Positions 1-37,469 of a stretch of DNA of 64,000 nt are shown here, one piece after another. Position numbers and translations under genes: made by a program. A model generated the notes under the pieces. That model searched no databases. It had not been told where the DNA came from and was given only the letters and a program-made list of their open reading frames with translations. The DNA lies in NCBI GenBank assembly GCA_963834525.1, contig CAWICA010000002.1:36666-100665 (forward strand), given 5' to 3'. Every line of letters starts with the position of its first letter. The stretch's first letter is position 1. This DNA is from Bryobacterales bacterium (lineage in GTDB: Bacteria > Cyanobacteriota > Vampirovibrionia > Obscuribacterales > Obscuribacteraceae).

Positions 1-194
1 ACAACCAAAGTGAATATTCTAAACTGCCAGGGAAAAGCGCATGATTATTTGATTTGAATGTAAAGGCAGACTCAGAAGCCGCAAAGCAGGCTGCCCACTG
101 GCAATAGGAAAGATTACTCGATTTTCATGCCAACCATAAACAATGATCTATAGCGATGATCAGGGCGCATCAGCGACGATACAATTTCTGAGCA

Positions 195-2514: not shown

Positions 2515-2533
2515 TCACGAGTGGTAATGGTGA

Positions 2534-4288: not shown

Positions 4289-4325
4289 GCAAGAGAACTT
4301 CCTATCCCAAACGAGATCAGTCAGT

Positions 4326-5042: not shown

Positions 5043-5082
5043 GCCTTATAGCTCCTGATGAGAGATCACGTTATGCCTGTGC

Positions 5083-6240: not shown

Positions 6241-6335
6241 GAGAGATCCCGCTTGAAACCTTAATAAGGTTACATGGTACTAGCCCCACCCTAAAAGGAG
6301 TGTTTCTTAATATGCCGTCTGGTAGTCAAATTGAG

Positions 6336-7493: not shown

Positions 7494-7520
7494 CGAATTC
7501 CCTAATAAACATTGCCGCCG

Positions 7521-8750: not shown

Positions 8751-8841
8751 TAAATGTACCTCTTAGTCGCTGCCAATGCGATTATCGATATTACACTACT
8801 CTTTTGCGTAATGACGCCCTGCTTCGGTGATTGACAGTTAA

Positions 8842-9648
8842 ATGGCGATACTTCAAGCGAATCCGTTAGTTAGTGTGGTTATCGCTTGCTATAACCAGAA
8901 ACAATTCTTGCGGTCACTGTTCAGTTCTTTGCTTGGACAAACTTATAGCAACCTGGAAATAATCTTTTTAGACGACTGCAGCCTTGACGATACTTGGGAA
9001 GCCAGTCGGCGGTATCAGGAGCAGCTCGAAGCTAAGTTTACGCGTGTACATATGGAACGGAATGCCACCAACCTTGGTGCCTTGCGAAACTTAGAAAAGG
9101 GTTTCGAAATGGTTTCCGGTGACTATGTATCGTATCTCGAAGCTGATGATTATTATTGTGCGACAAAGGTAGAAAGGAATCTGGAGTTTTTCGAGTCAAA
9201 TCCCTCTTACGGTGCTGTGCATTCAGACTATTATCTGGTGCAAGAGGACCTACAAGTATTGCCCAGGTTCGAAAAAAGCTGGATCGGCAAAGTTCCCTCT
9301 GGTTGGATCTTTGATGATCTGCTCACTAAAAGTTTCGTGCGCGCTCCCACTCTGATGGTTAGACGCGATTTTTTCTTGCGAGCATTCCAATTTGCCCTTT
9401 TTGAAAAGCGCGATTATCGAATGGGTGATTATCCAGGATTGCTAATGCTTTCGCAGATGACAAAAATCGGTTTCATTGAGGATCCGCTCGTATTCTATCG
9501 TGTGCTCGAAGTATCGATGAGCCATACACCGGTGCCCGGCGAAAAAGCGGCATTGATGAAAGCAGTGGAAAAAGTACAAAGGGATGCTCGTATGGGCAGG
9601 CTCAATCCGCAAGACCTAGCGCCCCGACTGGAGTTGAATCGCTGCTAG
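8842..9648 (+). CDS. GT2 glycosyltransferase (paralog of 14256-15026)
   Basis: 'VSVVIACYNQKQFLRSLFSSLLGQTYSNLEIIFLDDCSLDDTWE' and 'YLEADDYY' (DXD). It aligns along its length with the 14256-15026 product. Its 3' end overlaps the convergent gene by 47 nt. Confidence 0.8.
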   Translation: MAILQANPLVSVVIACYNQKQFLRSLFSSLLGQTYSNLEIIFLDDCSLDDTWEASRRYQEQLEAKFTRVHMERNATNLGALRNLEKGFEMVSGDYVSYLEADDYYCATKVERNLEFFESNPSYGAVHSDYYLVQEDLQVLPRFEKSWIGKVPSGWIFDDLLTKSFVRAPTLMVRRDFFLRAFQFALFEKRDYRMGDYPGLLMLSQMTKIGFIEDPLVFYRVLEVSMSHTPVPGEKAALMKAVEKVQRDARMGRLNPQDLAPRLELNRC

Positions 9649-11215
9649 CCAAATCTATAAGAAGCCGTGCGTTGCCATAATCGCGAGTGCCGCGGTCGAC
9701 ATGCAAAAATGTCAGCGGTTCTGTTACTTCGAAGATGCCGATGCCGAGCTTTTGAGCATCTATTATCTCCGTAGGTTGAAGATCAATCTTGTCGACCCAG
9801 ATCTCACCGTCTTCTACCCATCGTTCGTCAACGTCTTGTCGATAATCTCTGTTAATTAGTGCACCGTTTGAGTCAATTACGTGGAAGCAGACAGTAAACT
9901 TCAGCTGCATTCTTTTAAGAGCTTGCCAGACAAGTTTTACGATGGTACGTTCTTTGGCGACCGATATTTCCACGGCCCCTAAGGCAAAGCTATCACCAAA
10001 TCTGGCACCACGAAATTCGCTCGGCGTTTTTGAAGCCAACGCTTCTGCTTCAAGCGGGCGCAGTCTGGTCAACTCTCTCTCGGCTTCGTTGAGCTTGTTC
10101 GACAAATCGTAATGCTCTTTGCGCAGCGACTCGTAAGCATGTGCCAGTGAATTGTAAGCTTGCCCGAGAGACTCGTGTTCATGTCCAAGTTGCTCGATTT
10201 GCTGACCGTACTTGTTCCGTTCACTCCATACAGATGCTGCGTCGTAAAATATTTGTTGTTCTCCCACCGTTTTGAAAAGATATGAGTAAGACAACCCGCA
10301 CAGCGTCTCTATTCTCTTTGCCGTGTTCGGATCGGAAAACAGTTCATGCAAAAGTTGCAGTCCGAAAAGCTGATGCTCGGGACGCGAAACCATAATCGCT
10401 ACATGAGCAAGATGGAAGAGCGACAGCTCATCTACTAGAGGCCACGGATGACCCTCTACTTCCGGGAAGATGCTCTTCAGTGTCTTGATGTCTTTAATTC
10501 GTTTGCTATATTCTTGCAAGCACTGGATAGTCTCAAAGCGGAAGCGAGCGTGGCTCTCTTCCGTTAGCGCGCCGGCATTCTTACTGTTCGCTTGCATTCT
10601 GTATTTGATCAAGATGTCCGGTACAACTACGATTTCGGATTCAAACAGTATCCGCACCCAAAGGTTCATATCGCTAAGTTGCTTGAATTGTGGCGGGAAA
10701 TAACCAAATCGATCTAGTATCGAACGACGCACGAGTCCGGCTGGATTGCATAGATGATTGCGAACGAAAAACATCTCCCTGAGCAGCTCGAACCGGCCTT
10801 TGCCCACTCCATCGGGAGGGGACCCGGTTCCTAATGCGTTGCTGTCATCGTCAATATATGCGCTTTCGCCAAAAACGCCGATCGTATCAGGGTGACTTTG
10901 CAAAAACTTAAGCAGCGTATCGAGCATGTGTGGCTCGTAGACATCATCTGTTCCCAGCCAGGCAACGTACTCTCCTCGAGCATACCCGTACGCCAGAGCA
11001 GTGTTGGCAAATATGCCGCGATTTATGCTGTTTTCGATGATTTTTAAGCGAGGATCACGAAACTGCTTCAGCCGGGCCAAAGTCCCATCTGTTGAAGCAT
11101 CGTCCGAGACGATCAATTCAAAATCTTGAAAGCTCTGGCAAAGAACACTTTCGATTGCCTCTGCAACGTATCTTTCATGATTATAAGTTGGAGCGACGAC
11201 GCTTATCGCTGGCAT
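9602..11215 (-). CDS. GT2 glycosyltransferase, coiled coil, and a C-terminal beta-rich domain shared with the two AT3 acyltransferases
   Basis: 'ISVVAPTYNHERYVAEAIESVLCQSFQDFELIVSDDASTDGT' and 'WLGTDDVY' (GT2). The middle is heptad-like ('LGHEHESLGQAYNSLAHAYESLRKEHYDLSNKLNEAERELTRL'). The last 130 aa or so ('ARFGDSFALGAVEIS..VKLVWQAL..FHVIDSNGALINRDYRQDVDERWVEDGEIWVD..KLGIGIFE..LHVDRGTRDYGNARLLI') match the AT3 C-termini. I see no TM segment. Confidence 0.75.
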   Translation of the reverse strand: MPAISVVAPTYNHERYVAEAIESVLCQSFQDFELIVSDDASTDGTLARLKQFRDPRLKIIENSINRGIFANTALAYGYARGEYVAWLGTDDVYEPHMLDTLLKFLQSHPDTIGVFGESAYIDDDSNALGTGSPPDGVGKGRFELLREMFFVRNHLCNPAGLVRRSILDRFGYFPPQFKQLSDMNLWVRILFESEIVVVPDILIKYRMQANSKNAGALTEESHARFRFETIQCLQEYSKRIKDIKTLKSIFPEVEGHPWPLVDELSLFHLAHVAIMVSRPEHQLFGLQLLHELFSDPNTAKRIETLCGLSYSYLFKTVGEQQIFYDAASVWSERNKYGQQIEQLGHEHESLGQAYNSLAHAYESLRKEHYDLSNKLNEAERELTRLRPLEAEALASKTPSEFRGARFGDSFALGAVEISVAKERTIVKLVWQALKRMQLKFTVCFHVIDSNGALINRDYRQDVDERWVEDGEIWVDKIDLQPTEIIDAQKLGIGIFEVTEPLTFLHVDRGTRDYGNARLLIDLASSDSTPVGALGLAD

Positions 11216-11219
11216 CGGT

Positions 11220-12530: not shown

Positions 12531-14278
12531 TCGATAGAAACGTTGGCCTGGCCAAGATCTAAGTAATCCTCATTCAACAGATGTTTTTTGAAGACCAGGT
12601 AAGGATGATAGGCGAAACTGGCCAAACCATCCTGCGGATTTCTCTGAGCTGCCGGCGGCAATACAGACCATTGATGTTTTCCATTTCTTTGTTTTTGGCT
12701 GCTCTGTCTTCTGGCCGGTGCAATCAGGCTTTCACCAAAATGCTCCGCAAGAAATAATGCTTTTTCTAAATAGGTTAGTGTAACTTGATCGTCTGCTTTC
12801 CAAAAACAAATATATTTGCCTTGGGCAGATTCAATTGTTTTCTCAACTGCCTCAACAGATTGAGAACATCGCTCAAGGCGCACAGATTTTCCGGACGTCC
12901 TGAAGTCCGCAAGTAATTCCTCAGGTATTTCCTTGTCGGTCAATAAGACAATCTCCAGGCTCTCTAATGTCTGCTGTGAGAGCCGCTGCAAATTTTTGAT
13001 AGGCAATGGCCAGCTGTCCCAGAGTGGCACAATCACGGTAACTGCTACCAAATCCTTGGTCGGCTCCGATATTTGATTCTGGTTGATGATTCGATCGAGA
13101 CTTGCTTCTTGTGCTATCTCCGGCTCGAAGGAAGAGAACGGTTCTGTCTCCCTGCCTGTCAAAGTTCGACGCACTGATTGCACTTTCGTCGATAATTTCC
13201 ACGTCGCCGAGCGCAGGATCTTCTTTCTCACGAGCTCGAGTTCCTCGACTTCCTGCTCGATCGATTCAAGCTCCTTCTGTCCGACTAGATCTCTTTGGTG
13301 CTCTTGTGCACGCTGCGACCTGTTGATCCAGAGGTGAGTTAAGGATTCAAGGCAATCGGCTATTTCTTCAGGAGTAAGGTCATCAAACAGTATTTCAGCT
13401 GCCCGCAAACTGAGAGCAAGATCGCAATTGCCCGCCCTCACCATTGAGCTACCCACCTGATCGAGCGTCTTGTCAAACATGTCGCTGCGCTTACCTATTG
13501 ATAGCGAAGCGAGGCCAGCCGCCGCACTGGTGGAACTAAAGAGTTTGGTCAGATCAGCCAATTTAACAAGCGATTCCTTGAGCCGGTTATCTTGTGCCAA
13601 CTCATCGAAGTAGCGAACAGAGACAAGCTCAACATCCAGCGCATATGAGCTGCGATATGCCAGGAGCGAAGTCCAGAGAGCGAGGTCAGATCCGGCAACA
13701 TATCTGTCATCAATAGATTGAAATACATTATCGCGCCTGAACATAGTTGCCGAAAGTGGTCCGATCACACTATGCGCTTCGAGTAACGCCTCTTTGATCA
13801 CTGCTGTGCCTTCTAAAATAGTATTCGGGTGGTCTACCCGTACGCTCTTTATAAATGCCCCTTCTGCCGTGACACAGCGGTAGCCGCAGCTGACTATACC
13901 AACCTGGGGATAACGCTCAAAAATCCGCCCCATTTCATCCAATGCATTGAAATCAAGAGTGTCTCCCGGATTCAAGCATTTGATCAATCGCGAATCACTC
14001 TGTTTTATAAGCAACTTCAGAGCCTTGTTCCTTCCTAGCCGCTCTTGATTGCAAAAGACTTTGAAACGAGAGTCCCGATCAGCGTATTCCTGAGCAATGG
14101 CGAGAGAATCGTCTGCGGAATCTTCGTCAGCGATGAACACATCAAAATTCGGGTAAGTCTGACCAATGATGCTGTCCAAAGTTTCACGCAGGTACGATCC
14201 ATTGTTGCGTGCAACGAGGCAAACTGTCACCGGTGATCTCATTCGTTCCTCAGCTTTATAAAAGGCCGAGCCTGGCAT
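12521..14278 (-). CDS. Two-module GT2-like protein (GT2, coiled coil with S-x-T-W-K motif, second degenerate GT2-like module)
   Basis: N-terminal 'VTVCLVARNNGSYLRETLDSIIGQTYPNFDVFIADEDSADDS'. Central 'ELESIEQEVEELELVRKKILRSATWKLSTKVQSVRRTL'. C-terminal 'VAVTVIVPLWDSWPLPIKNLQRLSQQTLESLEIVLLTD' looks like a second Rossmann-like GT-A module. 'LNPGDTL' sits at the first DXD position. Confidence 0.6.
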   Translation of the reverse strand: MPGSAFYKAEERMRSPVTVCLVARNNGSYLRETLDSIIGQTYPNFDVFIADEDSADDSLAIAQEYADRDSRFKVFCNQERLGRNKALKLLIKQSDSRLIKCLNPGDTLDFNALDEMGRIFERYPQVGIVSCGYRCVTAEGAFIKSVRVDHPNTILEGTAVIKEALLEAHSVIGPLSATMFRRDNVFQSIDDRYVAGSDLALWTSLLAYRSSYALDVELVSVRYFDELAQDNRLKESLVKLADLTKLFSSTSAAAGLASLSIGKRSDMFDKTLDQVGSSMVRAGNCDLALSLRAAEILFDDLTPEEIADCLESLTHLWINRSQRAQEHQRDLVGQKELESIEQEVEELELVRKKILRSATWKLSTKVQSVRRTLTGRETEPFSSFEPEIAQEASLDRIINQNQISEPTKDLVAVTVIVPLWDSWPLPIKNLQRLSQQTLESLEIVLLTDKEIPEELLADFRTSGKSVRLERCSQSVEAVEKTIESAQGKYICFWKADDQVTLTYLEKALFLAEHFGESLIAPARRQSSQKQRNGKHQWSVLPPAAQRNPQDGLASFAYHPYLVFKKHLLNEDYLDLGQANVSIECC

Positions 14279-15026
14279 GCTGTCGAATCAGCATCACCGA
14301 GTCTCTGAAGGCTTGGCTCTTCTTTGTGTCATGACTAGCGGAGTTAGCCAATACTCTGTAGTAGGCTAGCGGTTCTGGAATGTAACCGAACTCAGTCAAC
14401 TTGCTCATACCAAGTACAGCGGGGTAATCAGTCATCATATAACCTCGCTCCTGAAAGAGAATGCGTTTATAACATTGCCGGTAGAGGTTCTTACGAACCA
14501 TAAGCGTAAGATGACCAACGGTGTTCTCTTGTAGTAAAGCATCATAGCCCCAGCCAGAAACCGGGTTAAGACTCGTAGTCTTAAAGAAGCCGCTATCGGC
14601 GACCTGACCATCTTTGTCGTGATAAAAATCAGAATGCACAGCACCGATATGCGAGTTTGTGTTTAAGTAGGAGACACAATAACCGAACCTCGTTGGATGA
14701 TAATAGTCGTCTCCGTCCATGCTACACATGTACTCTCCAGTTGCCTGACTCGCGGCAACTTCACCAGTCAAATGCATACCGAGATTGACTGAATTTTGTT
14801 GGATGGTCACATTTGCAAAAGCATCCTTAAGGCGAGTTTCGTACGACTTCGCTAAGGCGAAGCTTTCGTCCGGACTACAGTCGTCAACGAAAATGATCTC
14901 GAGGTTTCGGTATGTTTGAGCCAGTAATGAATCAAACAGATCAGTCAGGTATGGAGCGTGCTTATAACAGAGTATGCAAACGCTTACCAGCGGTTTATAG
15001 TCAAATCGGTTACCGGTTAGCAACAC
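14256..15026 (-). CDS. GT2 glycosyltransferase (paralog of 8842-9648)
   Basis: 'VSVCILCYKHAPYLTDLFDSLLAQTYRNLEIIFVDDCSPDESF' and 'SMDGDDYY'. GTG start. The gene overlaps the upstream stop, which suggests operon coupling. Confidence 0.8.
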   Translation of the reverse strand: MLLTGNRFDYKPLVSVCILCYKHAPYLTDLFDSLLAQTYRNLEIIFVDDCSPDESFALAKSYETRLKDAFANVTIQQNSVNLGMHLTGEVAASQATGEYMCSMDGDDYYHPTRFGYCVSYLNTNSHIGAVHSDFYHDKDGQVADSGFFKTTSLNPVSGWGYDALLQENTVGHLTLMVRKNLYRQCYKRILFQERGYMMTDYPAVLGMSKLTEFGYIPEPLAYYRVLANSASHDTKKSQAFRDSVMLIRQHARLGLL

Positions 15027-15185
15027 TCGGCTTGCTCTCCTTCATCACACTTTTTTCATCAAAACATCGCCAACAAAGTGTCTCAGGACCGCGCAGATGT
15101 GGCAGAGTTCATTTTCATCAAGTCTCCTTAGAAATTTTACGCGCTTTTATGACCTAAAATAGCTATCTACACTCGGTCGCATAGC

Positions 15186-16379
15186 ATGACAATGTTCTCA
15201 CTTTGTCTTTTGTCTAACCCTGGAAACGATGCTCTGGCAGTGGTCGACGCGCTGAGCTCCCAGACGTTTGCCGATTGGGAAGCAATTCTCTGCCTGGATG
15301 GTGCGGGTAACCAGAGCCAGGTCCTTGCTGAGCGCTCCCAAGCAGATCCACGAATCAAGCTAATCGCAGCCGACCAATCACTTAGTTTTTATGGCAACCT
15401 CAATCGTTGCCTAACGACCGCTCGGGGAGAATTGATAAAAATTCTCCATCCGAATGAACTCCTCTCCACTCAAGCATTGGCAGAACTGGTCGAGACTTTC
15501 GAAAAGAAAAGTGCCAGTCAGGTAGTCACATATGGCAGCAACGTGTTTTCAACGTTAGACCAGCAAGGAGGCCATAGCCTCGTTGATACCTTGTCTATGT
15601 TGCCGCCTGGACTGAGTGATCATTGTCTACAAGGATTGAAAGACTTTTTTCCGCTTAATGGAGAGCCGCGGTCGATTTATCTTTGCGCTTTCCGACGCCC
15701 TACCGTCCTTCCTCAGTTTGACCTGAAATTGAATCTGCTTGCCGAACATTGTTTTCTCTTTTCACTCTTTCAGCCTGAACCGGAAACAGTCCATTGCAAT
15801 AAAACTCTCAGCGAGATCGCCGTGCCTGAGCCAAAGCTAGACATATCAGCGGAGGTCCAATACCTCTCGCTCATCGGTGAATTAGTACTATTTCATGCAC
15901 GACTAGCTAAAGAAGATTCTCTCCACTATAGCTCGCTCATCATCCGGCTGAAAAAACTACGGGATGCCTTGGAAGACGAATGTTTCACAAAGTTTAGTAT
16001 TCCACTTCTAGAGTTGCTTGCTCGCGAAAGATTACCCATAAGAGATTTACCACCGGCGACTTTGAAGCAGATTGGCTTCGCTCTTACTGCTGCAGCCTGC
16101 GACCGCATTTTGCAAATCGAACAGACTCAAATTGACTGCTACTATCGCTCGATCAAATTGAAAGAATTGCGCGAACACAAGAAGTATTTGGAGCGGGAGG
16201 TCAACGCCCTGCTCGGCTCGCGTTCGTGGCGCGCGCTGGAACCACTTCGTTCAGCTAAGAAGAAGGCTTATGGTCTGGCGGCATTTCTAAAAAAACAAAC
16301 GCCATCAGGACCAAAGAACAATGGCAACGGTAGTACTGCCAACGGTGTCACCAGTCGTTCTCCCACTATTGCCGACTGA
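15186..16379 (+). CDS. Degenerate GT2-like protein with C-terminal coiled coil and S-W-R tail
   Basis: It aligns with the 58980-60197 family ('RIKLIAADQSLSFYGNLNRCLTTARGELIKILHPNELL' vs 'RIKHWINERNLKLFGNYNECMRRATGKYIKPFAHDDLL'). 'HPNE' replaces the DXD. The C-terminus is 'KLKELREHKKYLEREVNALLGSRSWRALEPLRSAKKK'. Confidence 0.5.
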   Translation: MTMFSLCLLSNPGNDALAVVDALSSQTFADWEAILCLDGAGNQSQVLAERSQADPRIKLIAADQSLSFYGNLNRCLTTARGELIKILHPNELLSTQALAELVETFEKKSASQVVTYGSNVFSTLDQQGGHSLVDTLSMLPPGLSDHCLQGLKDFFPLNGEPRSIYLCAFRRPTVLPQFDLKLNLLAEHCFLFSLFQPEPETVHCNKTLSEIAVPEPKLDISAEVQYLSLIGELVLFHARLAKEDSLHYSSLIIRLKKLRDALEDECFTKFSIPLLELLARERLPIRDLPPATLKQIGFALTAAACDRILQIEQTQIDCYYRSIKLKELREHKKYLEREVNALLGSRSWRALEPLRSAKKKAYGLAAFLKKQTPSGPKNNGNGSTANGVTSRSPTIAD

Positions 16380-17487
16380 TGGACGGTCGAGCTAGAGACA
16401 TTGAGTTAGCACCGGCGACCTGCTTGCTGATGAACCAGTCAGTAAGGCTGGCTGCACCATCTTTGAAGCTAATTTTGTGCTCGAATTTGAGTCTCTTCTT
16501 AACAGCAGAGCAGTCCGCTTGACAATATCTGATTTCGCCAGGAACCAATTGCCCAGTGCAATGGGGCTGAGCGGTCTCCGGATGCCCGACAGCGGCAAGT
16601 CTTTCTCTAACCTGGACAACAAAATCAAGTAGCGGCGTCTGGATTCCTGATCCAACATTGAAGAAATTGATACCAGCTAAATTTGTCTCAAGCACATCCA
16701 CATTGACCGAGACAACATCGCTGATATAGATGAAATCTCGACCTTGCAAGCCATCTTCAGTGATCATCGGACTCTGACCATTGATCAACATTTGAGTGAA
16801 TTGCGAATATGGATTACCGGCAGACTGACCCGGTCCATAAACGGTACAGTATCTGAGCACCACAATCGTGATGCCCAGCAAACGACAAGTAGACACGAGC
16901 AAATCTTCTTGTGACTTTTTTGTAATCGCATAAACAGACTCGCCGTTTCGGCTGGCACTCTCCGGAGTCCAGTCTGGTTCAATGTGGCCCAAACAATTTG
17001 GACAACGTGGATTCCAATCATTAAGTTCTTCGATTTGCTTTTGGGAAAGCCTCAGGTCCGGTCGCACAATCCCGCATTCGCCGCAGCAGTAGTTGCCTTC
17101 GCCATAAACACTAATCGATGACCCAAGAATGATTTTGTTCACCTGGTGGCGACCAGCTCTTAACACATCGACTAAGTTGGCAGTGCCGGCAATATTTGTA
17201 TTGACGAAATCGTGTACATGCTGTGCCGATGCGGCAACACCAACGGCGGCCGCTTTATGAAAGATCACATCCGAGCCGGCGACAAGCTTAGCGAGTAAAG
17301 CCTGATCCCGGACGTCACCGATGACTCTTTGCAAAGATTGCTCTTCATCTTTGCCAAAAGCCTCAGGGTAAGCCACGTTAGATGAGCGCGTAATAGTTGT
17401 TACAGAGTGACCTCGCCTGAGCAGCTCCGCGCTCAAATGAGAGCCTATGAAGCCCATGCCGCCGGTAATTAGAATTTTCGCCGCCAT
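16366..17487 (-). CDS. NAD-dependent epimerase/dehydratase (extended SDR) with an inserted Cys4 zinc-ribbon-like segment
   Basis: 'KILITGGMGFIGSHL' (Rossmann) and 'VYAITKKSQE' (YxxxK). The insertion 'CCGECGIVRPDLRLSQKQIEELNDWNPRCPNC' lies between them. The track ORF starts at GTG 17502. ATG at 17487 ('MAAKILITGG') is the more likely start. Confidence 0.8.
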   Translation of the reverse strand: MAAKILITGGMGFIGSHLSAELLRRGHSVTTITRSSNVAYPEAFGKDEEQSLQRVIGDVRDQALLAKLVAGSDVIFHKAAAVGVAASAQHVHDFVNTNIAGTANLVDVLRAGRHQVNKIILGSSISVYGEGNYCCGECGIVRPDLRLSQKQIEELNDWNPRCPNCLGHIEPDWTPESASRNGESVYAITKKSQEDLLVSTCRLLGITIVVLRYCTVYGPGQSAGNPYSQFTQMLINGQSPMITEDGLQGRDFIYISDVVSVNVDVLETNLAGINFFNVGSGIQTPLLDFVVQVRERLAAVGHPETAQPHCTGQLVPGEIRYCQADCSAVKKRLKFEHKISFKDGAASLTDWFISKQVAGANSMSLARPSISRQ

Positions 17488-17498
17488 ATTAAGACCAT

Positions 17499-17520
17499 GC
17501 ACTTCGCTGCAGTGAAGTGC
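17499..17520. promoter_or_regulatory. 22-bp near-perfect palindrome in the divergent SDR / AT3 intergenic region (candidate operator or hairpin)
   Basis: GCACTTCGCTGCAGTGAAGTGC. The outer 7 nt and the central CTGCAG pair perfectly, with one mismatched pair (G-T). It lies 12 nt upstream of the ATG at 17487 and 15 nt upstream of the TTG at 17535. Confidence 0.3.
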
Positions 17521-17534
17521 CTATCAGGTAGTTA

Positions 17535-19454
17535 TTGAGGAATTATCGCCTAAATCTCGAAGAATTATATTGTGCTCAGCTAATAAAAGAACAGCCTGTC
17601 GGACCAGATAGAATTGTCAACTGTAGAACTGCCGCTCGGGACAGTTCGCTGGGACGTTGTGAATTTGCTTTGATTCAGTTTGCCCCTACACTCGCAGCAA
17701 CCAATGCAGCGCTCAAACAAGCAGCGCCAACGGAGCGGCTCAATGCTCTGACGTCACTGCGTTTTTTTGCAGCGATGATGATTGTCTTACTACATTTCTC
17801 GTCTTCCCTCTGTCCAGAAGCTTGGCAGTTCGTCAAATATTTAACTCTAGGCCAGGGAGTCGCTTTTTTCTACGTTCTTTCCGGTTTTATCCTCACTTAC
17901 GTGTATCCTGAGCTTGCTGGGCTTAAGAATGTCCTGGCCTTTCTACGCGCTCGGTTCGCACGTATCTATCCGTGTCATCTCGTTGGTCTTGGATTGTCGC
18001 TCTTACTTGTTCCTACCGTCATGCCACATTCGAAGTTTGTGAAGATCCTGCTGGCGAACTTACTTCTGATTCAGGACTGGATCCCCATACGGGCCTACTA
18101 CTTCTCTTTGAACGCACCGGCATGGAGCATTTCATGCGAATTTTTCTTCTATCTCACATTTCCCTTTCTGATCCATCGATTTGCTAGAACGTGGAAACAA
18201 AAGCTCCTTGCCTGTGCACTCTTGGTCGTATCGCTGATTAGCCTTGGCTGCTACTTAAACTTGCCCATGTATGGAGACGATAACTTCAAAGTAGAGTGCC
18301 ACTGGTTCTTCGCTACCTCGCCTCTTGTCAGAATTTTTGAATTTTGCCTGGGCATGACAGCTGCACTTTTGTTCTCTCGAGTGCGCAATGTATTTAAAGC
18401 AACAAAAGTAACAACCTTACAAATGACAGTGATAGAGATTGTGCTGATGATAGCGGCATTACTTTGTCTGCTTGCCGGTGATCCCATGGCCATTTTAAAA
18501 AGCGCCCATACGAACATCGAAAAGGCATTTTTGATCTGGGCTGTTGGCAGCGGCGGGGCACCAATATATGCAGCAATCTTAATTACTTTCGCGCTGCAAA
18601 TGGGACGAGTATCAAAACTGCTCTGCTTGCCGTTCTTTGTCTTGCTCGGCGATATCAGCTATGCCATTTACTTATTACACTGCCCGATTATTGGATTTAT
18701 CACGCTGCACAAAGCACAACTCATAGATGTGCCACCAATTCTAGTCTACGCCGCTTTCTGGATTGCCACGCTATCTAGTTCTTATCTGTGTTTTGAGCTG
18801 ATTGAAAAACCATTGCGTGGACTGATCGTGGGTAAGGGACTGACTATAATGCCCAGGAAGCTAAACACTGCTCTTGCTGCCAATCTCTGTTGCATTTTCA
18901 TCTTAGTCGGTTTAACATGCGTTGCTCTAAACGCGCGAGCTTTCAATTGGCAGCTTTCTCGGGATAAAGTAATTGCCCTAGTGAATCAAACTCAAGCCGG
19001 AATTTCGGGCACCAAGTTCGGTGACTCATTCGAGTTAGAAGCATGTGCACTCCAACGTCAGGGCAAAGATTATGTGCTTAAACTGGTCTGGCGTAGCCGT
19101 GCCCTGCAGCCGTGTAAATATTACGTGGCAGTTCATGACATGGATGCTAATGGAAAGTTGCTGGGCTATAAGGACTATCCTCAAGATCTAGGTAAGCGCT
19201 GGGTTTGTCCTGGCCAAACCTGGCAAGATGTTGTGCCGATCACTAATTCGCAATGGCAGCAGACTAAACAAATTGGCATCGGCATCTATATCCCAGAGCC
19301 GTTCAGTATGTTGCCTTGCGATCGCGGCAGGCGCGATTATGCCGGTCACCGACTGCTCATTTCGGCAAATGAACTGCAGAATAAAGTAGAGGGAGGCGCA
19401 GCCATCTCAGACCATGCCTTGCGGCCGGTTGTTCACCCACAACAAGAAATGTGA
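17535..19454 (+). CDS. Acyltransferase-3 (OafA/YrhL-type) membrane O-acyltransferase with extra TM and a non-SGNH C-terminal domain, copy 1
   Basis: 'LNALTSLRFFAAMMIVLLHF', 'NAPAWSISCEFFFYLTFPFL' and 'LGDISYAIYLLHCPI' are AT3 hallmarks. An additional TM ('ALAANLCCIFILVGLTCVAL') follows, then a domain of about 130 aa, 'TKFGDSFELEACAL..LKLVWRS..YYVAVHDMDANGKLLGYKDYPQDLGKRWVCPGQTWQD..IGIGIY..CDRGRRDYAGHRLLI'. The true start is probably downstream of the TTG at 17535. Confidence 0.8.
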   Translation: MRNYRLNLEELYCAQLIKEQPVGPDRIVNCRTAARDSSLGRCEFALIQFAPTLAATNAALKQAAPTERLNALTSLRFFAAMMIVLLHFSSSLCPEAWQFVKYLTLGQGVAFFYVLSGFILTYVYPELAGLKNVLAFLRARFARIYPCHLVGLGLSLLLVPTVMPHSKFVKILLANLLLIQDWIPIRAYYFSLNAPAWSISCEFFFYLTFPFLIHRFARTWKQKLLACALLVVSLISLGCYLNLPMYGDDNFKVECHWFFATSPLVRIFEFCLGMTAALLFSRVRNVFKATKVTTLQMTVIEIVLMIAALLCLLAGDPMAILKSAHTNIEKAFLIWAVGSGGAPIYAAILITFALQMGRVSKLLCLPFFVLLGDISYAIYLLHCPIIGFITLHKAQLIDVPPILVYAAFWIATLSSSYLCFELIEKPLRGLIVGKGLTIMPRKLNTALAANLCCIFILVGLTCVALNARAFNWQLSRDKVIALVNQTQAGISGTKFGDSFELEACALQRQGKDYVLKLVWRSRALQPCKYYVAVHDMDANGKLLGYKDYPQDLGKRWVCPGQTWQDVVPITNSQWQQTKQIGIGIYIPEPFSMLPCDRGRRDYAGHRLLISANELQNKVEGGAAISDHALRPVVHPQQEM

Positions 19455-21370
19455 GCACTTTGATTTCCAGATCCAGCACGAACTTTGCGGAGCAAGTCGC
19501 CGCTTCCCCTGCGGCAGTCGATGCCGCACTGCAACGTCCATCCGCACCGGTTCGACTAAACGCTCTGACATCGCTGCGCTTTTTTGCAGCGATGATGATT
19601 GTCTTAATGCATTTTTCCTCCAGCATCTGCCCAGAATCAGTGCCGTTCGTACAATGTCTGGCATTGGGCCAAGGTGTGGCTTTCTTCTATGTTCTTTCCG
19701 GCTTCATCCTCACCTATGTCTATCCAGAGCTTGCTGGTCCTAAAGGTGCCCTGGAATTTCTGCGCGCCCGCTTCGCCCGTATCTATCCGTGTCATCTCGT
19801 TGGTCTCGGATTGTCGCTCCTGCTTGTTCCTACCGTCATACCACATTCCCAGTTCGTAAAGCTTTTGAGTGCTAACCTACTGCTAGTACACGACTGGATT
19901 CCGATCAGTGCCTACTACTACTCATTCAATGCACCGTCGTGGAGCATCTCCTGTGAATTTTTCTTCTACCTCGCATTCCCGTTTCTAATCCATCAATTTG
20001 CCAAAACTTGGAAGCAAAAGTTGCTTGCCTGTGCAGTTCTGTCCGCATCAATGATCGGCATTGCCTGCTACTTAAACTTGCCTATGGTTGCTAATAATAG
20101 TTTCGCATTGGACTCTCAATGGTTCTGCACTGACTCCCCTCTCGTCAGAATTTTTGAATTTTGCCTGGGCATGACAGCTGCGCTTTTGTTCTTTCGAATG
20201 CGCAGTGCATTTAAAGCGACTAAAGCACCGACCCTGCGAATGACTCTGCTAGAGGTTGTTCTGGTCGCAGCAGCATTACGTTATCTGTTGGCAGGAACCA
20301 TTTTATGGAGTGCCAATCCAAACATCGAAAAGGCTTTGTTTTGGGCTATTGGCAGCGGGGGAGCGCCTATATATGCGGCAATCTTAATTATCTTCGCGCT
20401 GCAAATGGGACGACTATCAAAACTACTCTGCTTGCCATTTTTTGTTTTGCTCGGTGACATTAGCTATGCTATTTATTTATTGCACTACCCGATCGTTGGA
20501 TTTATTGCACTGCACAAAGCGCAGCTCGCGGTATTGCCGCCAATTCTGGTCTACGCTGGTTTCTGGATTGCCACACTAGCTGGTGCTTACCTGTGCTTCG
20601 AGCTAATTGAAAAGCCGATGCGTGGACTGATCATGGGTAAGGGCTTAGCAATGCTGCCCAGAAAGCTCACTACCGCATTAGCAGTTAATTTGTGTTGTGT
20701 CTTTGCTTTAGTGGGTCTGACAGGCACTCTTCTAAACGACCGGGTTTGCAATTGGCAGCAGCTTTCGCACGACAAAATAGTATCCCTGACAAAGAGCACC
20801 GCAGCTGGAATTTCGGGCACCAAATTCGGCGGCATATTCGAGCTGAAAGCGTGTGCACTTCAACGCCAGGGCAAAGATTATGAGCTTAAACTTGTCTGGC
20901 GCAGCCGCGCCCTACAGCCGTGTAAATATTACGTGGCTGTTCATCTTTTAGATGCCAGTGGCAAATTGCTTGGATACAAAGATTATCCACAAGATCTTGG
21001 TAAACGCTGGGTCTGCCCTGGACAAACATGGCAAGATGTTGTGCCGATCACCCATGCACAATGGCAGCAGACTAAACAAATTGGCGTCGGCATCTATACC
21101 CCAGAGCCGTTTAGTATGTTGCCTTGCGATCGCGGCAAGCGCGATTATGCCGGTCACCGACTGCTCATTTCGGAAAATGAACTGCAGAAACTAGCAGACA
21201 GTACTTCAGAAATCTCAGACCATGCAGTTCAGACGGTTGTTCATCCACCACAGAAAATGTAATCGCCTTGATTTCCATTTCCAACACCAATTTTGCAGGG
21301 CAAGTTGACTCTACAAGCGCGTCTACCAGTGCCGCAGTGGAAGATCCAGCTGTACCCGTACGGCAAAATA
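17700..21370 (+). repeat. Tandem duplication of a unit of about 1.8 kb (two AT3 genes) plus a partial third unit of about 100 nt forming the 5' end of the next gene
   Basis: Long stretches are nearly identical by eye, for example 'cgtatctatccgtgtcatctcgttggtct' and 'caagatgttgtgccgatcac..caatggcagcagactaaacaaattggc' occur in both copies. The junction 'gttgttca.cca..a.aaatgt.a..c..ttgatttcca..tcc' recurs at about 19430 and about 21235. Boundaries are approximate. Confidence 0.8.
19451..21262 (+). CDS. Acyltransferase-3 membrane O-acyltransferase with the same C-terminal domain, copy 2 (tandem duplicate)
   Basis: 603-aa ORF collinear with copy 1 and highly similar at protein and DNA level. The GTG start overlaps the upstream stop (GTGA). 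Confidence 0.85.
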   Translation: MSTLISRSSTNFAEQVAASPAAVDAALQRPSAPVRLNALTSLRFFAAMMIVLMHFSSSICPESVPFVQCLALGQGVAFFYVLSGFILTYVYPELAGPKGALEFLRARFARIYPCHLVGLGLSLLLVPTVIPHSQFVKLLSANLLLVHDWIPISAYYYSFNAPSWSISCEFFFYLAFPFLIHQFAKTWKQKLLACAVLSASMIGIACYLNLPMVANNSFALDSQWFCTDSPLVRIFEFCLGMTAALLFFRMRSAFKATKAPTLRMTLLEVVLVAAALRYLLAGTILWSANPNIEKALFWAIGSGGAPIYAAILIIFALQMGRLSKLLCLPFFVLLGDISYAIYLLHYPIVGFIALHKAQLAVLPPILVYAGFWIATLAGAYLCFELIEKPMRGLIMGKGLAMLPRKLTTALAVNLCCVFALVGLTGTLLNDRVCNWQQLSHDKIVSLTKSTAAGISGTKFGGIFELKACALQRQGKDYELKLVWRSRALQPCKYYVAVHLLDASGKLLGYKDYPQDLGKRWVCPGQTWQDVVPITHAQWQQTKQIGVGIYTPEPFSMLPCDRGKRDYAGHRLLISENELQKLADSTSEISDHAVQTVVHPPQKM

Positions 21371-22536
21371 ACTGCGCATCGGGAGGCGGCAACAGTATTT
21401 GTCTCAGTTCTTTTGTAACATCTCTGCTTCTGTTTATTGCTCTTTTTATTTATGTCACACACATAGAGGCCAATCAACGCCGTCGCGACGAGATAGATAC
21501 TATGGTGTACCGGAACGCGACCGCCCGATCGTGTGGACGATTTGAGAAATTCATTATCGGCTCCGCCAATCCAGACATTATTCTGCTTGGTTCCTCTGTT
21601 TTTCTTACGCCGAGCGACCTTTACGACCTCAAATCTGCAAACGCTAAAAGGATGGGCCTAATACAACTGCAAAAGTTCTTGAACAACTATGTGACGCCAG
21701 TATCTTTCGTTCGTTGTCTGAACAAGCACGGGCTATCTAATGTCTCAGCCATTGACCTTTGCATGTCTGCGGCTGTGATTGCAGATGATGATTTGATTAT
21801 CAAACAATGCCTAATCTACCGTAAGAGACCAAGATTGGTTATTTATGGAATCAACCCTCGCGATTTTGCGTTCCATCTCAGCAAAACTTGGATTACCCCA
21901 GCTTTCAAAGACATTCCTCTTCTGCCATTTGCCTGTCCACGCTGGCTGCGCTTGTGTCTTGTCGAGCTGCGTCCCAGCTCCATTTTGAGAAACTTGGATA
22001 CTGAACGATCCTATTTCCGCCAAATGATCTTGCTTCCATCGAACTTAGTTCAGCAAACAAATGCTCATTTTGCCTTCCTGCTGTCGCCATTTACAAAGCA
22101 AAAATATAACGACATACCGGTGTCAGCCCTAGGCAAACTGCTCGAACCGAACAAAGACAAAATTGACTTAACAGGTCTAGATTGTTGCTTCGCTCCGCTC
22201 GATAGGGAATTCGTAAATAATCAATTCATCGCCCTGGAGAACTCGGCTAATTTGCTTCGGGAAAAAGACATCAAGCTGTTGATCGTCGAAATACCTTTTT
22301 GTCCTGGCGCGCAGGAGCGAATTCCCCAGGCGTTGAGAAATGAATACGAGCAAAGAATGCAATCGATCTGCAAAGAGTATGGCGCAATTCGCTACCAGCC
22401 TGAATCCGAGCAACAGTTTTCAACGGAAGATTATTTTGATTGGGTGCACATGAATGCAATCGGTGCAGCCAAATTGTTTGATGGCTTGTCAAATTTTATT
22501 AGCCAAAGACGTTCTCAGCTATTGCCCGGAGTCTGA
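21268..22536 (+). CDS. N-terminally membrane-anchored SGNH/DUF1574-like hydrolase or acyl-esterase fold protein (candidate partner of the AT3 enzymes)
   Basis: One N-terminal TM ('ICLSSFVTSLLLFIALFIYV'). 'DIILLGSSVFLTPSD' is a possible block I and 'DWVHMNAIGAAKLFDGL' is a DxxH-type block V. The first 35 codons or so are homologous to the N-terminus of AT3 copy 2. The fold call is tentative. Confidence 0.45.
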   Translation: MISISNTNFAGQVDSTSASTSAAVEDPAVPVRQNNCASGGGNSICLSSFVTSLLLFIALFIYVTHIEANQRRRDEIDTMVYRNATARSCGRFEKFIIGSANPDIILLGSSVFLTPSDLYDLKSANAKRMGLIQLQKFLNNYVTPVSFVRCLNKHGLSNVSAIDLCMSAAVIADDDLIIKQCLIYRKRPRLVIYGINPRDFAFHLSKTWITPAFKDIPLLPFACPRWLRLCLVELRPSSILRNLDTERSYFRQMILLPSNLVQQTNAHFAFLLSPFTKQKYNDIPVSALGKLLEPNKDKIDLTGLDCCFAPLDREFVNNQFIALENSANLLREKDIKLLIVEIPFCPGAQERIPQALRNEYEQRMQSICKEYGAIRYQPESEQQFSTEDYFDWVHMNAIGAAKLFDGLSNFISQRRSQLLPGV

Positions 22537-22555: not shown

Positions 22556-23602
22556 TTACAATGTGATGTGCAACGTATGATAAGCGAATGCCATCTTACC
22601 GCCGAATTTTTGACTTATGTGGATGACTCGATAATTGGATAGCTGAGTCTTGTTTTCGACCACTGTCACTCCTCTTTGCGCAAGCCACTGACATCCCCTG
22701 GTAAACAGTTTATGGGCAGTGCCTAGTCCTTGCAGTTTTGGCTCAATCGCATTGAGTACGCATTTTGCCAGCCTTTCATTGATCGCTCCTTGGTGATCTC
22801 TATCCAGTTTAAAGGTCATGAAACCGGTTGGGTTACCATTTTGTTTCTGAACCAGTATTAGATCAGCTCGATGCTCGATCACAGCATTGCGGATGAAGCG
22901 AGAATAAAGCTGTCCGATCTGTTCGCGGCGAAGATCGGGGTCGCTATTGAATCGATTGACGTTCTGCGACCGGTCAGTAAAACAAGCACAAGCGATCTCT
23001 TCTAGTCGCCCAACATCGGCTACCGTAGCTTCTTCAATAGAATCTCCACAGCTAGAGTTAGATTCTTTGTCCTCGGTGCACAGTTTGGTGATCGGAACAT
23101 GGTAGGCGACAATGGTGTCTCGCAGTCTGTAGCCAGCAGTTTCAAGAGCATTAACGGCAGCGGCATCACCAGCAAATGCTGAACAAGAGATGTGTTTGAT
23201 CCCATGCCTTCGCGCCACGTCGTGAACCTGCGCTAAAAGTTTGACGCCAGCCCTTACCCCTGGTGCAGACAAAGCCGCCGTTTGGGCAGAGAAGAAAAAC
23301 TCCACTCTGGCTGTCCGCTGTCCGAAAACTTCGCTCTCTAGAGGCAAAAAGCGCAAACCGGCGAACCACTGCGGCTGATCGGGTTCAACCGTGCGAATCA
23401 ACCAGACGGAACCATCCTCCGAAAACACGTCGGCATAATTAAACATCGAGACTGCCGCTTGCGCACAAGCGCTTTTTGACGAATATAGGCTGACGTAAGG
23501 AAGAAATTGCCATTCCGCACAAGCGTCTTCGAGCGCAAGTTCAGCTTCGGATCGAGCACTTTCAGCGACGTTTGAAGTCAAATCTCTGGTAGCCAATATC
23601 AA
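22556..23602 (-). CDS. WecD-like GNAT N-acyltransferase, paralog 2 of 3
   Basis: 348-aa ORF collinear with 195-1199 ('WQFLPYVSLYSSKSACAQAAVSMFNYADVFSEDGSVWLIR', 'FAGLRFLPLESEVFGQRTARVEFFF', ends 'TQLSNYRVIHISQKFGGKMAFAYHTLHITL'). Confidence 0.6.
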   Translation of the reverse strand: MILATRDLTSNVAESARSEAELALEDACAEWQFLPYVSLYSSKSACAQAAVSMFNYADVFSEDGSVWLIRTVEPDQPQWFAGLRFLPLESEVFGQRTARVEFFFSAQTAALSAPGVRAGVKLLAQVHDVARRHGIKHISCSAFAGDAAAVNALETAGYRLRDTIVAYHVPITKLCTEDKESNSSCGDSIEEATVADVGRLEEIACACFTDRSQNVNRFNSDPDLRREQIGQLYSRFIRNAVIEHRADLILVQKQNGNPTGFMTFKLDRDHQGAINERLAKCVLNAIEPKLQGLGTAHKLFTRGCQWLAQRGVTVVENKTQLSNYRVIHISQKFGGKMAFAYHTLHITL

Positions 23603-25055: not shown

Positions 25056-26546
25056 CTAGATGAACATTGCTGAACTGGGAAAACCGGCAACTGCGAAGTC
25101 GACGCTCTCAATTTTTGGTAGTTGATCGGGAGCCACGGCAGGAGCGGTAGCCGAATGTGCTGGATGGGCAGCGTCATGAACTATATTATCCATGTAGTAA
25201 TCGACTGCCTCTTGCGGGTTTCCTTCTTTGACGATTTGCCCTTTGAACAGAACAATGGCCCGATTGCACAGTTCAATAATATGTTTGCTTTCATGCGAAA
25301 CCAAAACAAGTATTTGGGATTGATTCATCATTTCATGCAGGCGGTCTAAACACTTCTGGACAAACTGCGCATCGCCGGCGGCAAATATTTCATCCATCAA
25401 AAGAATCTCTGGATCGCAGATCGCCCCAATCGAGAAAGCCAAGCGTCCATGCATGCCAGTTGAATAATATTTGATCGGCAGATCGATCATCTCACCAAGC
25501 TCAGAGAACTCGATGATCGCTTTTTCCAGCGCTCTCATCTGCTTGTAAGAGCGGCCCATAAGCGCTCCGTTCAGATAGATGTTCTCCCGCCCGCTCAGTT
25601 CATGATCAAAACCGGTACCCAGCTCGATCAAGGGAGTGATCTTGCCACGGACCAGAATCTCACCCGATTGAGCCGGATAAATGCCGACGATCATTTTCAA
25701 CAAAGTAGATTTGCCGGCGCCATTCAATCCCAGGATTCCCAGCCGATCCCCAGGGCGAAGTTCAAGATTGATGTTTTTCAGAGCGTCGAATTCAGTTACG
25801 GTGTTGTGATTCTTCCGGCTCATTCTCTGAACCACCGTCTCCTTTAGGCCGGGCGACGGATTTCGGTAAAGACGAAAGCGCAATGAGGCATCTCTAACAA
25901 TGACATAGACATCATTGTCGCTCCCCATGCTCTGCGCCTGCGCCGAACCTTCTCCTTCGCCGACGGTAGACACCGACGCCGTGCGCACAAGCAATTGCTG
26001 TTGATGGCGCCGGCTCAATTGCAGCCGTCTAAGGGCCCGGGGAGCGAACAAAAGAACAAAGCACAGAGCGGCCTCAATGAAAATTATGGCGAATGAGATC
26101 TGGGTGCCCTCTATCGACAGCCACCCAAGCGAGCGCACGCCAATGAAGACCGCAGTGACAAGAAAAACTGGCAAGCCAAGCTCGAATGCTTCCTTGATTC
26201 CTGTGTGTCCCCAATTACTTTTGTACACCCCGCAGAGCCAATTGACGAGCAACTGTAGAGCCACCACTATCGGTAGCAACCAGAGCAATTGATGAAGGTA
26301 CCCGGCATCTGCCTCTGATCTAAACAGGTCGAAATGGAAGCGGGCTATAAACGCTCCCACCAAAGCGAGCGCAATCAGAGCCGCATCGATGACCATTTGC
26401 CCAAGCCGCCTGGCCGTCACATTGGCGATCTCGGTAGTTTGAGTTATACCTGAATCTCGCGGCTGGACAAGAGTCTCCTGCGTAGCTGGTTGCGTTGCGG
26501 ATTCAGTTATGGGTTCAGTCAAAAGCGTGTTTGTTGTCGGTGCCAT
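25056..26546 (-). CDS. wzt: Wzt/TagH/KpsT-type polysaccharide-export ABC ATPase with an N-terminal four-TM extension
   Basis: The NBD has Walker A 'GILGLNGAGKSTLLKM', 'LIELGTGFDHELSGRENIYLNGALMG', signature 'YSTGMHGRLAFS' and Walker B 'ILLMDEIFAAGD'. About 230 aa carrying four hydrophobic helices precede it. The track ORF starts at 26609 and overlaps wzm. ATG at 26546 ('MAPTTN') is the more likely start. Confidence 0.85.
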   Translation of the reverse strand: MAPTTNTLLTEPITESATQPATQETLVQPRDSGITQTTEIANVTARRLGQMVIDAALIALALVGAFIARFHFDLFRSEADAGYLHQLLWLLPIVVALQLLVNWLCGVYKSNWGHTGIKEAFELGLPVFLVTAVFIGVRSLGWLSIEGTQISFAIIFIEAALCFVLLFAPRALRRLQLSRRHQQQLLVRTASVSTVGEGEGSAQAQSMGSDNDVYVIVRDASLRFRLYRNPSPGLKETVVQRMSRKNHNTVTEFDALKNINLELRPGDRLGILGLNGAGKSTLLKMIVGIYPAQSGEILVRGKITPLIELGTGFDHELSGRENIYLNGALMGRSYKQMRALEKAIIEFSELGEMIDLPIKYYSTGMHGRLAFSIGAICDPEILLMDEIFAAGDAQFVQKCLDRLHEMMNQSQILVLVSHESKHIIELCNRAIVLFKGQIVKEGNPQEAVDYYMDNIVHDAAHPAHSATAPAVAPDQLPKIESVDFAVAGFPSSAMFI

Positions 26547-26580
26547 GATAGTCAAAAGATCCCCAGCAAATAAGAAACCG

Positions 26581-30096
<3,516 letters not shown>

Positions 30097-35937: not shown

Positions 35938-35971
35938 CATTCGCTCTCATCCGGCAGTGCAAGGTGTCTAA

Positions 35972-37467: not shown

Positions 37468-37469
37468 TT

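Follow-up and report, generated by a model that had tools for sequence, protein, structure and literature searches.

A C-terminal beta-sandwich domain shared by acyltransferase-3 proteins and a soluble glycosyltransferase: a putative polymer-binding module in polysaccharide biosynthesis

Three proteins of one polysaccharide cluster with a common C-terminal domain

The window analyzed here, a stretch of 64,000 nucleotides (contig CAWICA010000002.1, positions 36,666 to 100,665) from a bacterium placed in the Obscuribacteraceae, is in its whole 64 kb one polysaccharide biosynthesis cluster, comprising more than 15 glycosyltransferases, sugar-nucleotide enzymes, methyltransferases and a Wzm/Wzt ATP-binding cassette (ABC) exporter. 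Three of its proteins, two acyltransferase-3 (AT3) membrane proteins encoded in tandem and one soluble family 2 glycosyltransferase (GT2), terminate in the same domain of ∼120 aa, which is the subject of this report.

The first AT3 gene (AT3-1; 17535..19454, forward strand) encodes a protein of 639 aa, also present in the protein collection, which consists of a core of ten transmembrane (TM) helices, an eleventh helix (TM11), a linker and the C-terminal beta-sandwich domain. The core matches Pfam PF01757 (Acyl_transf_3) at residues 71-419 (E=1.5e-21). Its tandem paralog AT3-2 (19451..21262, forward strand; 603 aa) begins with a GTG codon, in a 4-nt overlap with the AT3-1 stop, and matches the same model at residues 38-382 (E=2.1e-25); both matches exceed the gathering score. 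The gene for the soluble GT2 (9602..11215, reverse strand; 537 aa) encodes a catalytic domain at residues 5-169 (10709..11203, reverse strand; Pfam PF00535, Glycos_transf_2, E=5.1e-28), a helical region, a probable coiled coil at residues ∼332-392 (10040..10222, reverse strand) and the C-terminal domain. The coiled coil is proposed on the basis of weak matches to the coiled-coil-type Pfam models HALZ, APG6_N and Sec10_N (E=0.002-0.02, residues 328-397). Neither a TM segment nor a signal peptide was found in the GT2 protein (9602-11215). The three copies of the domain occupy positions 19011..19364 (AT3-1, forward strand; family hidden Markov model, HMM, E=1.7e-45), 20819..21172 (AT3-2, forward strand; E=4e-46; the copy that was modelled) and 9653..10006 (GT2, reverse strand, the cytoplasmic copy; E=1.1e-40).

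As judged from sequence comparison, the homology of the three C-terminal copies is real and lies far beyond chance. The tails of AT3-1 and the GT2 protein align by BLASTP over 136 aa with 35% identity (E=1e-30), and a profile built from 51 family sequences recovered all three copies from the six-frame translation of the window (E=1e-41 to 1e-46); no other open reading frame (ORF) of the window, and nothing else in this translation, scored better than E=2. Chance similarity of the three tails is ruled out by these scores. A preliminary description of this DNA had assigned a common C-terminal domain of ∼130 aa to both AT3 proteins and the TM-less GT2, had placed the GT2 copy at 9650-10030 and had left the significance of the alignment to be checked. 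The ORFs are as described there, the computed GT2 boundaries are close to those given, and the alignment is significant.

The two AT3 proteins are 75% identical overall, and the domain (90%) is their best-conserved segment, as compared with the core (78%), the linker (59%) and the tail (52%). The GT2 copy is 33-37% identical to the AT3 copies of the window, close to the value (39%) between these and the best outside sequence. The AT3 genes of the window were rejected as a recent source of the GT2's domain, since some foreign AT3 copies are closer to it, at 42%.

The location of the domain relative to the membrane was assessed from 41 family members that combine AT3 with the domain. Their averaged hydropathy has ten peaks, with a long loop separating TM3 from TM4, and then one more peak, the eleventh, that corresponds to residues 408-427 of AT3-2 (ALAVNLCCVFALVGLTGTLL; 20675..20734, forward strand); TM11 of AT3-1 (ALAANLCCIFILVGLTCVAL; 18870..18929, forward strand) was assigned by hydropathy and by alignment with AT3-2. 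Lysine and arginine residues average 2.3, 3.4, 2.1, 3.1, 0.8 and 6.7 in the successive predicted cytoplasmic segments and 0.5, 1.3, 0.8, 1.0 and 1.5 in the predicted outer loops; the loop before TM11 is the one with 6.7, and the 25 residues that follow TM11 are net neutral. Because of this charge bias the AT3 proteins are predicted to have eleven TM helices with the N-terminus inside and the C-terminus outside, such that the tail would be extracytoplasmic. The extra helix ahead of the domain, as described earlier, thus follows a canonical 10-TM core in both proteins, and the earlier proposal that the domain occurs on both sides of the membrane is supported by the predicted location of the AT3 copies and by the soluble, TM-less GT2.

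Both AT3 proteins contain an R-X10-H motif in TM helix 1 (RFFAAMMIVL(L/M)H) and an RXXR motif before TM helix 3 (RARFAR). The R/K-X10-H and RXXR motifs are essential in OafA (PMC7448272), and their retention makes the AT3 cores look active, at the level of sequence. In fused AT3-SGNH proteins the outer end of TM helix 2 bears the motif GG-F/Y-XGV-D/P/V, together with a short loop between helices 1 and 2. Here the sequence ∼20 residues after the TM helix 1 histidine reads LGQGVAFF; the aspartate that is essential in OafA (PMC7448272) is an alanine here, resembling the unfused AT3 class. No Pfam match of the SGNH clan was found on either AT3 protein.

Two further observations concern the gene arrangement. 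A segment of ∼170 nt across the junction of AT3-1 and AT3-2 (19400-19560) aligns with 21210-21370, where AT3-2 ends and the next ORF (21268-22536, described below) starts, and the first ∼35 codons of that ORF are homologous to the N-terminus of AT3-2 (STNFAEQVAAS..PVRLN). For these reasons the second AT3 copy seems to have acquired the 5' end of the downstream gene by fusion during the tandem duplication. The GT2 gene converges with a gene at 8842-9648 (forward strand), and the 3' ends of the two overlap by 47 nt (9602-9648).

A beta-sandwich family fused to glycan-modifying enzymes

An exhaustive HMMER search over 1.84 billion representative proteins detected the domain in 580 clusters at E<=1e-3, of which 174 also reach E<=1e-10; a word-indexed search that started from the three-sequence alignment returned no homolog. 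No model of Pfam-A 2025 or NCBIfam 20.0 covered the domain in the three window proteins at E<=0.1, no curated family matched it in 83 homologs at E<=1e-3, and the best score in sequence and profile searches of the PDB was E=0.27. By these sequence criteria the domain is a new, unannotated family. Fifteen positions (F10, G11, L16, W34, H49, D52, G55, D62, Q65, W78, D80, G113, D116, R121 and L122) are conserved in at least 82% of 142 copies, and all three window copies, including that of the cytoplasmic GT2, keep 15 of the 15. Cysteines, of which the AT3 copies have four, are not conserved across the family. A degenerate DNA pattern for DRGPRDW...RLL matched 11 genome loci, nine of them real, and the genome matches were distributed among Nostoc, other Cyanobacteria, Melainabacteria, Verrucomicrobiota, Planctomycetota (Phycisphaerales) and Rokubacteria. 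The window GT2 itself was absent from the gene-position index.

The copy of AT3-2 was modelled with AlphaFold2 from the 51-sequence alignment, with high scores (predicted local distance difference test, pLDDT, 96.3; predicted template-modelling score, pTM, 0.89), and contains nine beta strands and one short helix. According to this model the domain is, with confidence, an all-beta sandwich and neither SGNH nor any known catalytic fold. Foldseek searches of the PDB returned only weak matches, all of them beta-sandwiches (8-16% identity, TM-score up to 0.54). The highest TM-score was obtained with the C-terminal O-antigen-binding domain of Wzt from E. coli (2r5o; query-normalized TM-score 0.54), and further matches included Wzt of A. 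aeolicus (8dl0) and accessory beta-sandwich domains of GH2 and GH3 enzymes; no SGNH structure was among them. An SGNH or other catalytic fold was therefore rejected by the model together with the Foldseek result, in agreement with the earlier view of an unrelated beta-rich module. Membership of Wzt_C (PF14524) was likewise rejected, in view of the lack of a Pfam match, an hhalign probability of 0.5% and a structural TM-score of only 0.54. When full-length AT3-2 was modelled with AlphaFold2 from its own sequence alone, the pLDDT was only 44 and the model could not be used.

The fusion partners of the domain, as annotated by sequence, are nearly all glycan-modifying enzymes. Among the long members (83 proteins), 52 carry AT3, five carry PMT_2 (GT-C), four an AlgX-like SGNH part and one a sulfotransferase, and one is the window GT2. 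This bears out the earlier suggestion that the same family closes PMT_2/GT-C proteins. One polypeptide of 1092 aa (P0137) is a triple fusion of AT3, PMT_2 and the domain, and many multi-TM proteins of 700-850 aa carry the domain with no Pfam match. Closer scans of single proteins raised the number of AlgX-like members to five (P0049, P0072, P0112, P0136 and P0046), which have an N-terminal anchor, the SGNH part and then one to three C-terminal copies of the domain; tandem arrays of two or three copies thus occur in the family. In one locus (L013) the gene for an AlgX-like protein with the domain (P0152, which clusters with P0049) comes immediately after an MBOAT gene, whose stop it overlaps by one base; MBOAT and SGNH proteins are a classic O-acetylation pair. 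Small members have lipoprotein signal peptides (lipobox LAAC, LTGC, LGGC or FGGC) and long Pro/Ala/Ser linkers ahead of the domain. On account of these lipoproteins and of the signal-anchored AlgX-like members, the domain is considered, from sequence signals, to work normally outside the cytoplasm.

The GT2 fusion is preserved in a second lineage. The protein P0157 (514 aa) is an ortholog of the window GT2, 36% identical over 97% of the query, and has the same GT2-linker-domain architecture; an artefact of assembly or annotation was thereby rejected, and the earlier claim that the domain closes a soluble GT2 holds.

In a second locus, L017 (JGI 3300052894, 1-18927), six domain-bearing genes are found within 21 kb. 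They encode an AlgX-like protein, an ortholog of the GT2, an AT3-TM11-domain protein, a soluble protein of 400 aa with a weak GT-B-like match, a multi-TM protein of 642 aa and a product cut by the contig end. The GT2 bodies of L017 and the window are clear orthologs (E=4e-100). The five full copies of the domain in L017 are 41-85% identical to one another and only 19-27% identical to the window copies, and among 161 copies the nearest three neighbors of each are exclusively copies from L017. All five share the locus-specific motifs GGxCDWGNHRL and VGVHI, with GGxCDW in place of DRGxRDW and DHxL in place of DYxQD. The copies of L017 therefore group by locus and not by fusion partner. In its AT3 protein and its 642-aa protein the domains are 85% identical, and by eye the preceding TM helix and linker are near-identical, as if a cassette of TM helix, linker and domain had been copied between different membrane enzymes.

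Two other loci are mentioned for comparison. In L019 (JGI 3300042932, 2986-12238) a 745-aa multi-TM protein with the domain is encoded in a Wzm/Wzt locus, the Wzt of which carries a Wzt_C domain, such that both beta-sandwich families can coexist in one pathway. L015 (JGI 3300077820) contains orthologs of the window GT4 (E=4e-131), a coiled-coil GT2 (E=1e-105) and a GT2 (E=6e-117), which correspond to window positions 6336-9648; at the site of the window gene for the GT2 with the domain, it has an AT3-only gene and an AT3-domain gene.

A candidate SGNH-like partner and other genes of the cluster

The ORF immediately downstream of the AT3 pair (21268..22536, forward strand; 6 nt after AT3-2) encodes a candidate SGNH-like, DUF1574-like protein. 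Its Pfam matches are weak, with DUF1574 (PF07611) at E=8e-4 (19.3 bits, below the gathering score of 29.1) and Lipase_GDSL_2 at E=0.022, also below the cut-off. A hydrophobic anchor is encoded at 21397-21456, around which the charge bias is unusual; the database gene call starts at M79 (344 aa) and omits the anchor. The only database homolog, P0155, has a weak PF07611 match and an N-terminal signal-like segment, and its contig was uninformative. The segments LLGSS (aa 106), YGINP (aa 193) and DWVH (aa 391) of the ORF, which could represent the block I serine, the block III asparagine and the block V DxxH of the SGNH clan, align with LLGSS, YGIAV and DIVH of P0155, and the block III asparagine is not common to the two. 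The family profile did not detect the new domain in this ORF, PDB sequence and profile searches gave no match for it, and phmmer found no homolog of it in loci L001-L016, so that, among the loci compared, the pairing of AT3 with DUF1574 was seen in this window only. DUF1574 is an SGNH-clan family without a known function (PMC9487903). From the weak scores at this one locus, SGNH activity may be provided in trans by the DUF1574-like protein. The earlier statement that the new domain replaces the SGNH domain thus stands as regards its position after TM11; the replacement is perhaps topological only, since the SGNH-like protein could act in trans.

The exporter genes, for Wzm (ABC-2 permease) and a Wzt-like ATPase, are located at 25056..27534 (reverse strand; Pfam ABC2_membrane and ABC_tran). 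In the ATPase (25056-26609, reverse strand) the N-terminus is extended by ∼250 aa that include hydrophobic segments, and the protein carries neither a C-terminal Wzt_C or other carbohydrate-binding domain nor the new domain, which is unusual for an exporter of the O-antigen type.

Three more GT2 proteins (7521-8750 and 12521-14278, reverse strand; 15186-16379, forward strand) contain coiled-coil-like stretches (weak coiled-coil Pfam matches) followed by a common motif, either SxSWR..(x)P(I/L)R (RSESWRMTAPIR, LGSRSWRALEPLR) or RSATWKLSTKV; the stretches and the common motif suggest that these coiled-coil glycosyltransferases may assemble together. Three proteins of 334-348 aa (195-1199, forward strand; 22556-23602 and 30206-31234, reverse strand) end in a GNAT acetyltransferase, which follows an unannotated N-terminal region of ∼225 aa. 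At 34945-39392 a radical-SAM/SPASM protein, an unannotated 407-aa ORF and an asparagine-synthase-like amidotransferase are encoded within the glycan cluster, and these genes may make an unusual sugar modification.

A module that may tether enzymes to the polymer of their locus

The layout of the AT3 proteins closely resembles that of AT3-SGNH proteins such as Salmonella OafA/OafB and S. aureus OatA, in that they share the 10-TM core, R-X10-H, RXXR, the long outer loop between helices 3 and 4 and an eleventh helix that, by prediction in the window proteins, exports the C-terminal domain, the arrangement described for OafB (PMC9833829, PMC9558356). They differ in the nature of the exported part, which is a 120-aa beta-sandwich here and an alpha/beta/alpha SGNH domain with a Ser-His-Asp triad in the known proteins; moreover, the loop between helices 1 and 2 is long, as described for unfused AT3. 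The architectures given in AT3 reviews are AT3-only, AT3-SGNH, AT3-racemase (VanT) and NRF-AT3 only (PMC9558356, PMC12423673). AT3 with a beta-sandwich is a new architecture of AT3 proteins and falls under the concept, already known, of accessory binding modules.

Other systems invite comparison. AlgX, the SGNH-like acetyltransferase that works with a membrane acyl carrier in the AlgI(MBOAT)/AlgJ/AlgX system of alginate O-acetylation, carries a C-terminal type-B carbohydrate-binding module (CBM) (PMC9487903), and the AlgX-like proteins of the family bear the new domain where AlgX has its beta-sandwich CBM. In contrast to AlgX, however, the window module is located on the membrane carrier (AT3) and not on the SGNH protein, the Pfam ALGX model omits the new domain (matching profile positions up to ∼170 of 268), and no AlgX chain appeared in the top 50 fold matches. 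Wzt_C of E. coli O9a (2R5O), the beta-sandwich with the highest TM-score, reads the finished polymer in the cytoplasm in an ABC pathway, and the new domain is also present in Wzm/Wzt loci. The two lack sequence or profile homology, and whereas Wzt_C is borne by the transporter the new module is borne by modifying enzymes. The mycobacterial EmbA/B/C and AftD proteins are multi-TM GT-C enzymes with C-terminal extracytoplasmic beta-sandwich CBMs; the new domain similarly closes PMT_2-type and other multi-TM proteins of 700-850 aa, but it belongs to another sequence family and to other phyla. As in CBMs in general, a discrete beta-sandwich is appended to carbohydrate-active enzymes, here AT3, PMT_2, AlgX-like, GT2 and sulfotransferase partners.

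The interpretation towards which we lean, with somewhat better than even confidence, is that the domain is a putative non-catalytic module of the carbohydrate-binding type that tethers each enzyme to the polymer of its own locus, on the AT3 proteins outside the cell membrane in the SGNH position and on the GT2 in the cytoplasm. We infer that its ligand is a glycan and that the SGNH-like protein is the partner of the AT3 proteins. The suggestion of glycan or product recognition made in the preliminary description gained support from the Wzt O-antigen-binding domain as best fold match, the position of the CBM in AlgX, the tandem copies and the co-variation within a locus. Recognition of a polymer is favored by the tandem repeats, the lipoproteins with long linkers, the fusion to enzymes that already have a catalytic SGNH part and the locus-specific variants on both sides of the membrane.

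Several observations weigh against this interpretation. About 15 positions, including H49, D62, Q65, D80, D116 and R121, are conserved among phyla whose glycans must differ, which is more than a purely glycan-specific site should show. The grouping by locus in L017 could reflect recent local duplication of a cassette, as between its AT3 and 642-aa proteins with their 85% identical copies, and not a common ligand. The GT2 copy of the window resembles the AT3 copies beside it (33-37%) no more than it does some foreign ones (42%). The weak Foldseek matches also take in lipid-binding sandwiches (PDE6-delta, NPC2, GM2 activator), ApaG/FBXO3 and C2 domains, and hhalign detected no homology between the family profile and a genuine Wzt_C, that of the Wzt of L019 (probability 0.5%).

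A role in protein docking or oligomerization, in which the domain would build enzyme complexes on each face of the membrane (by bringing the SGNH-like partner onto AT3, for example) and bind no glycan, is in our estimation unlikely. It would account for the greater similarity of copies within a locus than of orthologous copies between loci, as expected of co-evolving interaction surfaces, and for the presence of the module on many enzymes of one pathway in L017; furthermore, the GT2 version follows a probable coiled coil, and protein contacts are often mediated by beta-sandwich folds. Yet copies separated by the membrane cannot touch and nevertheless have the same locus-specific variant, the domain occurs alone on long-linker lipoproteins and as tandem repeats on a single enzyme, and the domain is missing altogether from the window's candidate SGNH partner.

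The strong conservation of charged and aromatic residues over distant phyla would suit a ligand that is universal, such as undecaprenyl (pyro)phosphate or the membrane surface, by which the enzymes would be anchored at lipid-linked intermediates on either face. Prenyl-binding PDE6-delta, NPC2, the GM2 activator and C2 domains indeed rank similarly among the fold matches, and a domain that works in both compartments and does not conserve its cysteines agrees with this explanation, but the lipid binders give TM-scores of only 0.35-0.52, the tandem arrays and the lipoproteins with their long Pro/Ala/Ser linkers suggest a module that extends away from the membrane, and the motif replacements in L017 (DRGxRDW, DYxQD) argue for variable specificity; we regard the lipid ligand as improbable. 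The chances of a new acyl-transfer or esterase domain, which would functionally replace SGNH in the AT3 proteins, appear slim indeed. Its position after TM11 is exactly that of SGNH, H49, D80, D116 and R121 are conserved in 82-98% of the copies, and the AT3-domain loci L015 and L016 have no annotated SGNH neighbor. Against a catalytic role, the domain is also fused to AlgX-type proteins that already bear SGNH and to GT2, GT-C and sulfotransferase partners, two or three tandem copies occur, the close structural matches include no enzyme fold, and the window has a separate SGNH-like gene after the AT3 pair.

Under the polymer-tethering interpretation, the 10-TM core of the AT3 proteins would carry an acyl group from acyl-CoA across the membrane, and TM11 would place the module on the outer face, at the position of SGNH in OafA/OafB. 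There the module would keep the exported polymer bound at the site of acyl transfer, and the final transfer would be performed by AT3 itself or by the membrane-anchored DUF1574/SGNH-like protein encoded directly downstream. In pathways that depend on an ABC transporter, export follows completion of the polymer on the cytoplasmic face, which would make one and the same finished polymer available to cytoplasmic and periplasmic enzymes. In a Wzm/Wzt locus of this kind, completion would occur on the cytoplasmic face, where the GT2-coiled-coil-domain protein would hold the nascent chain by means of its own copy of the module.

A bolder extension, which we put forward only tentatively and consider possible rather than probable, is that the module acts as a pathway-specific “address tag”. 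Each locus would evolve its own variant and place it on many enzymes on both faces of the membrane, i.e., on cytoplasmic GT2, GT-B-like and sulfotransferase proteins and on extracytoplasmic AT3, AlgX-like and GT-C proteins, all of which would recognize one polymer. The AT3-SGNH system would thereby be split into a carrier with a binder and a separate SGNH transferase of the DUF1574 type. If this were true, it would provide the first functional context for the orphan DUF1574 family.

Acceptor specificity, and the manner in which acyl transfer is completed by AT3 proteins that lack a fused SGNH domain, are unsettled in the AT3 field (PMC9558356). The architecture described here separates a probable substrate-binding module from its catalytic partner, so that each role can be tested alone. 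About 580 protein clusters with an unannotated tail are now marked, mostly from environmental Cyanobacteria, Verrucomicrobiota and Planctomycetota so far. If the module does read the polymer, it would constitute a new carbohydrate-binding family, unusual in its use by biosynthetic enzymes of either membrane face and in its co-variation within a locus. It could then serve to predict which enzymes of uncultured bacteria work on a common glycan, and tailoring enzymes could be retargeted by exchange of the domain.

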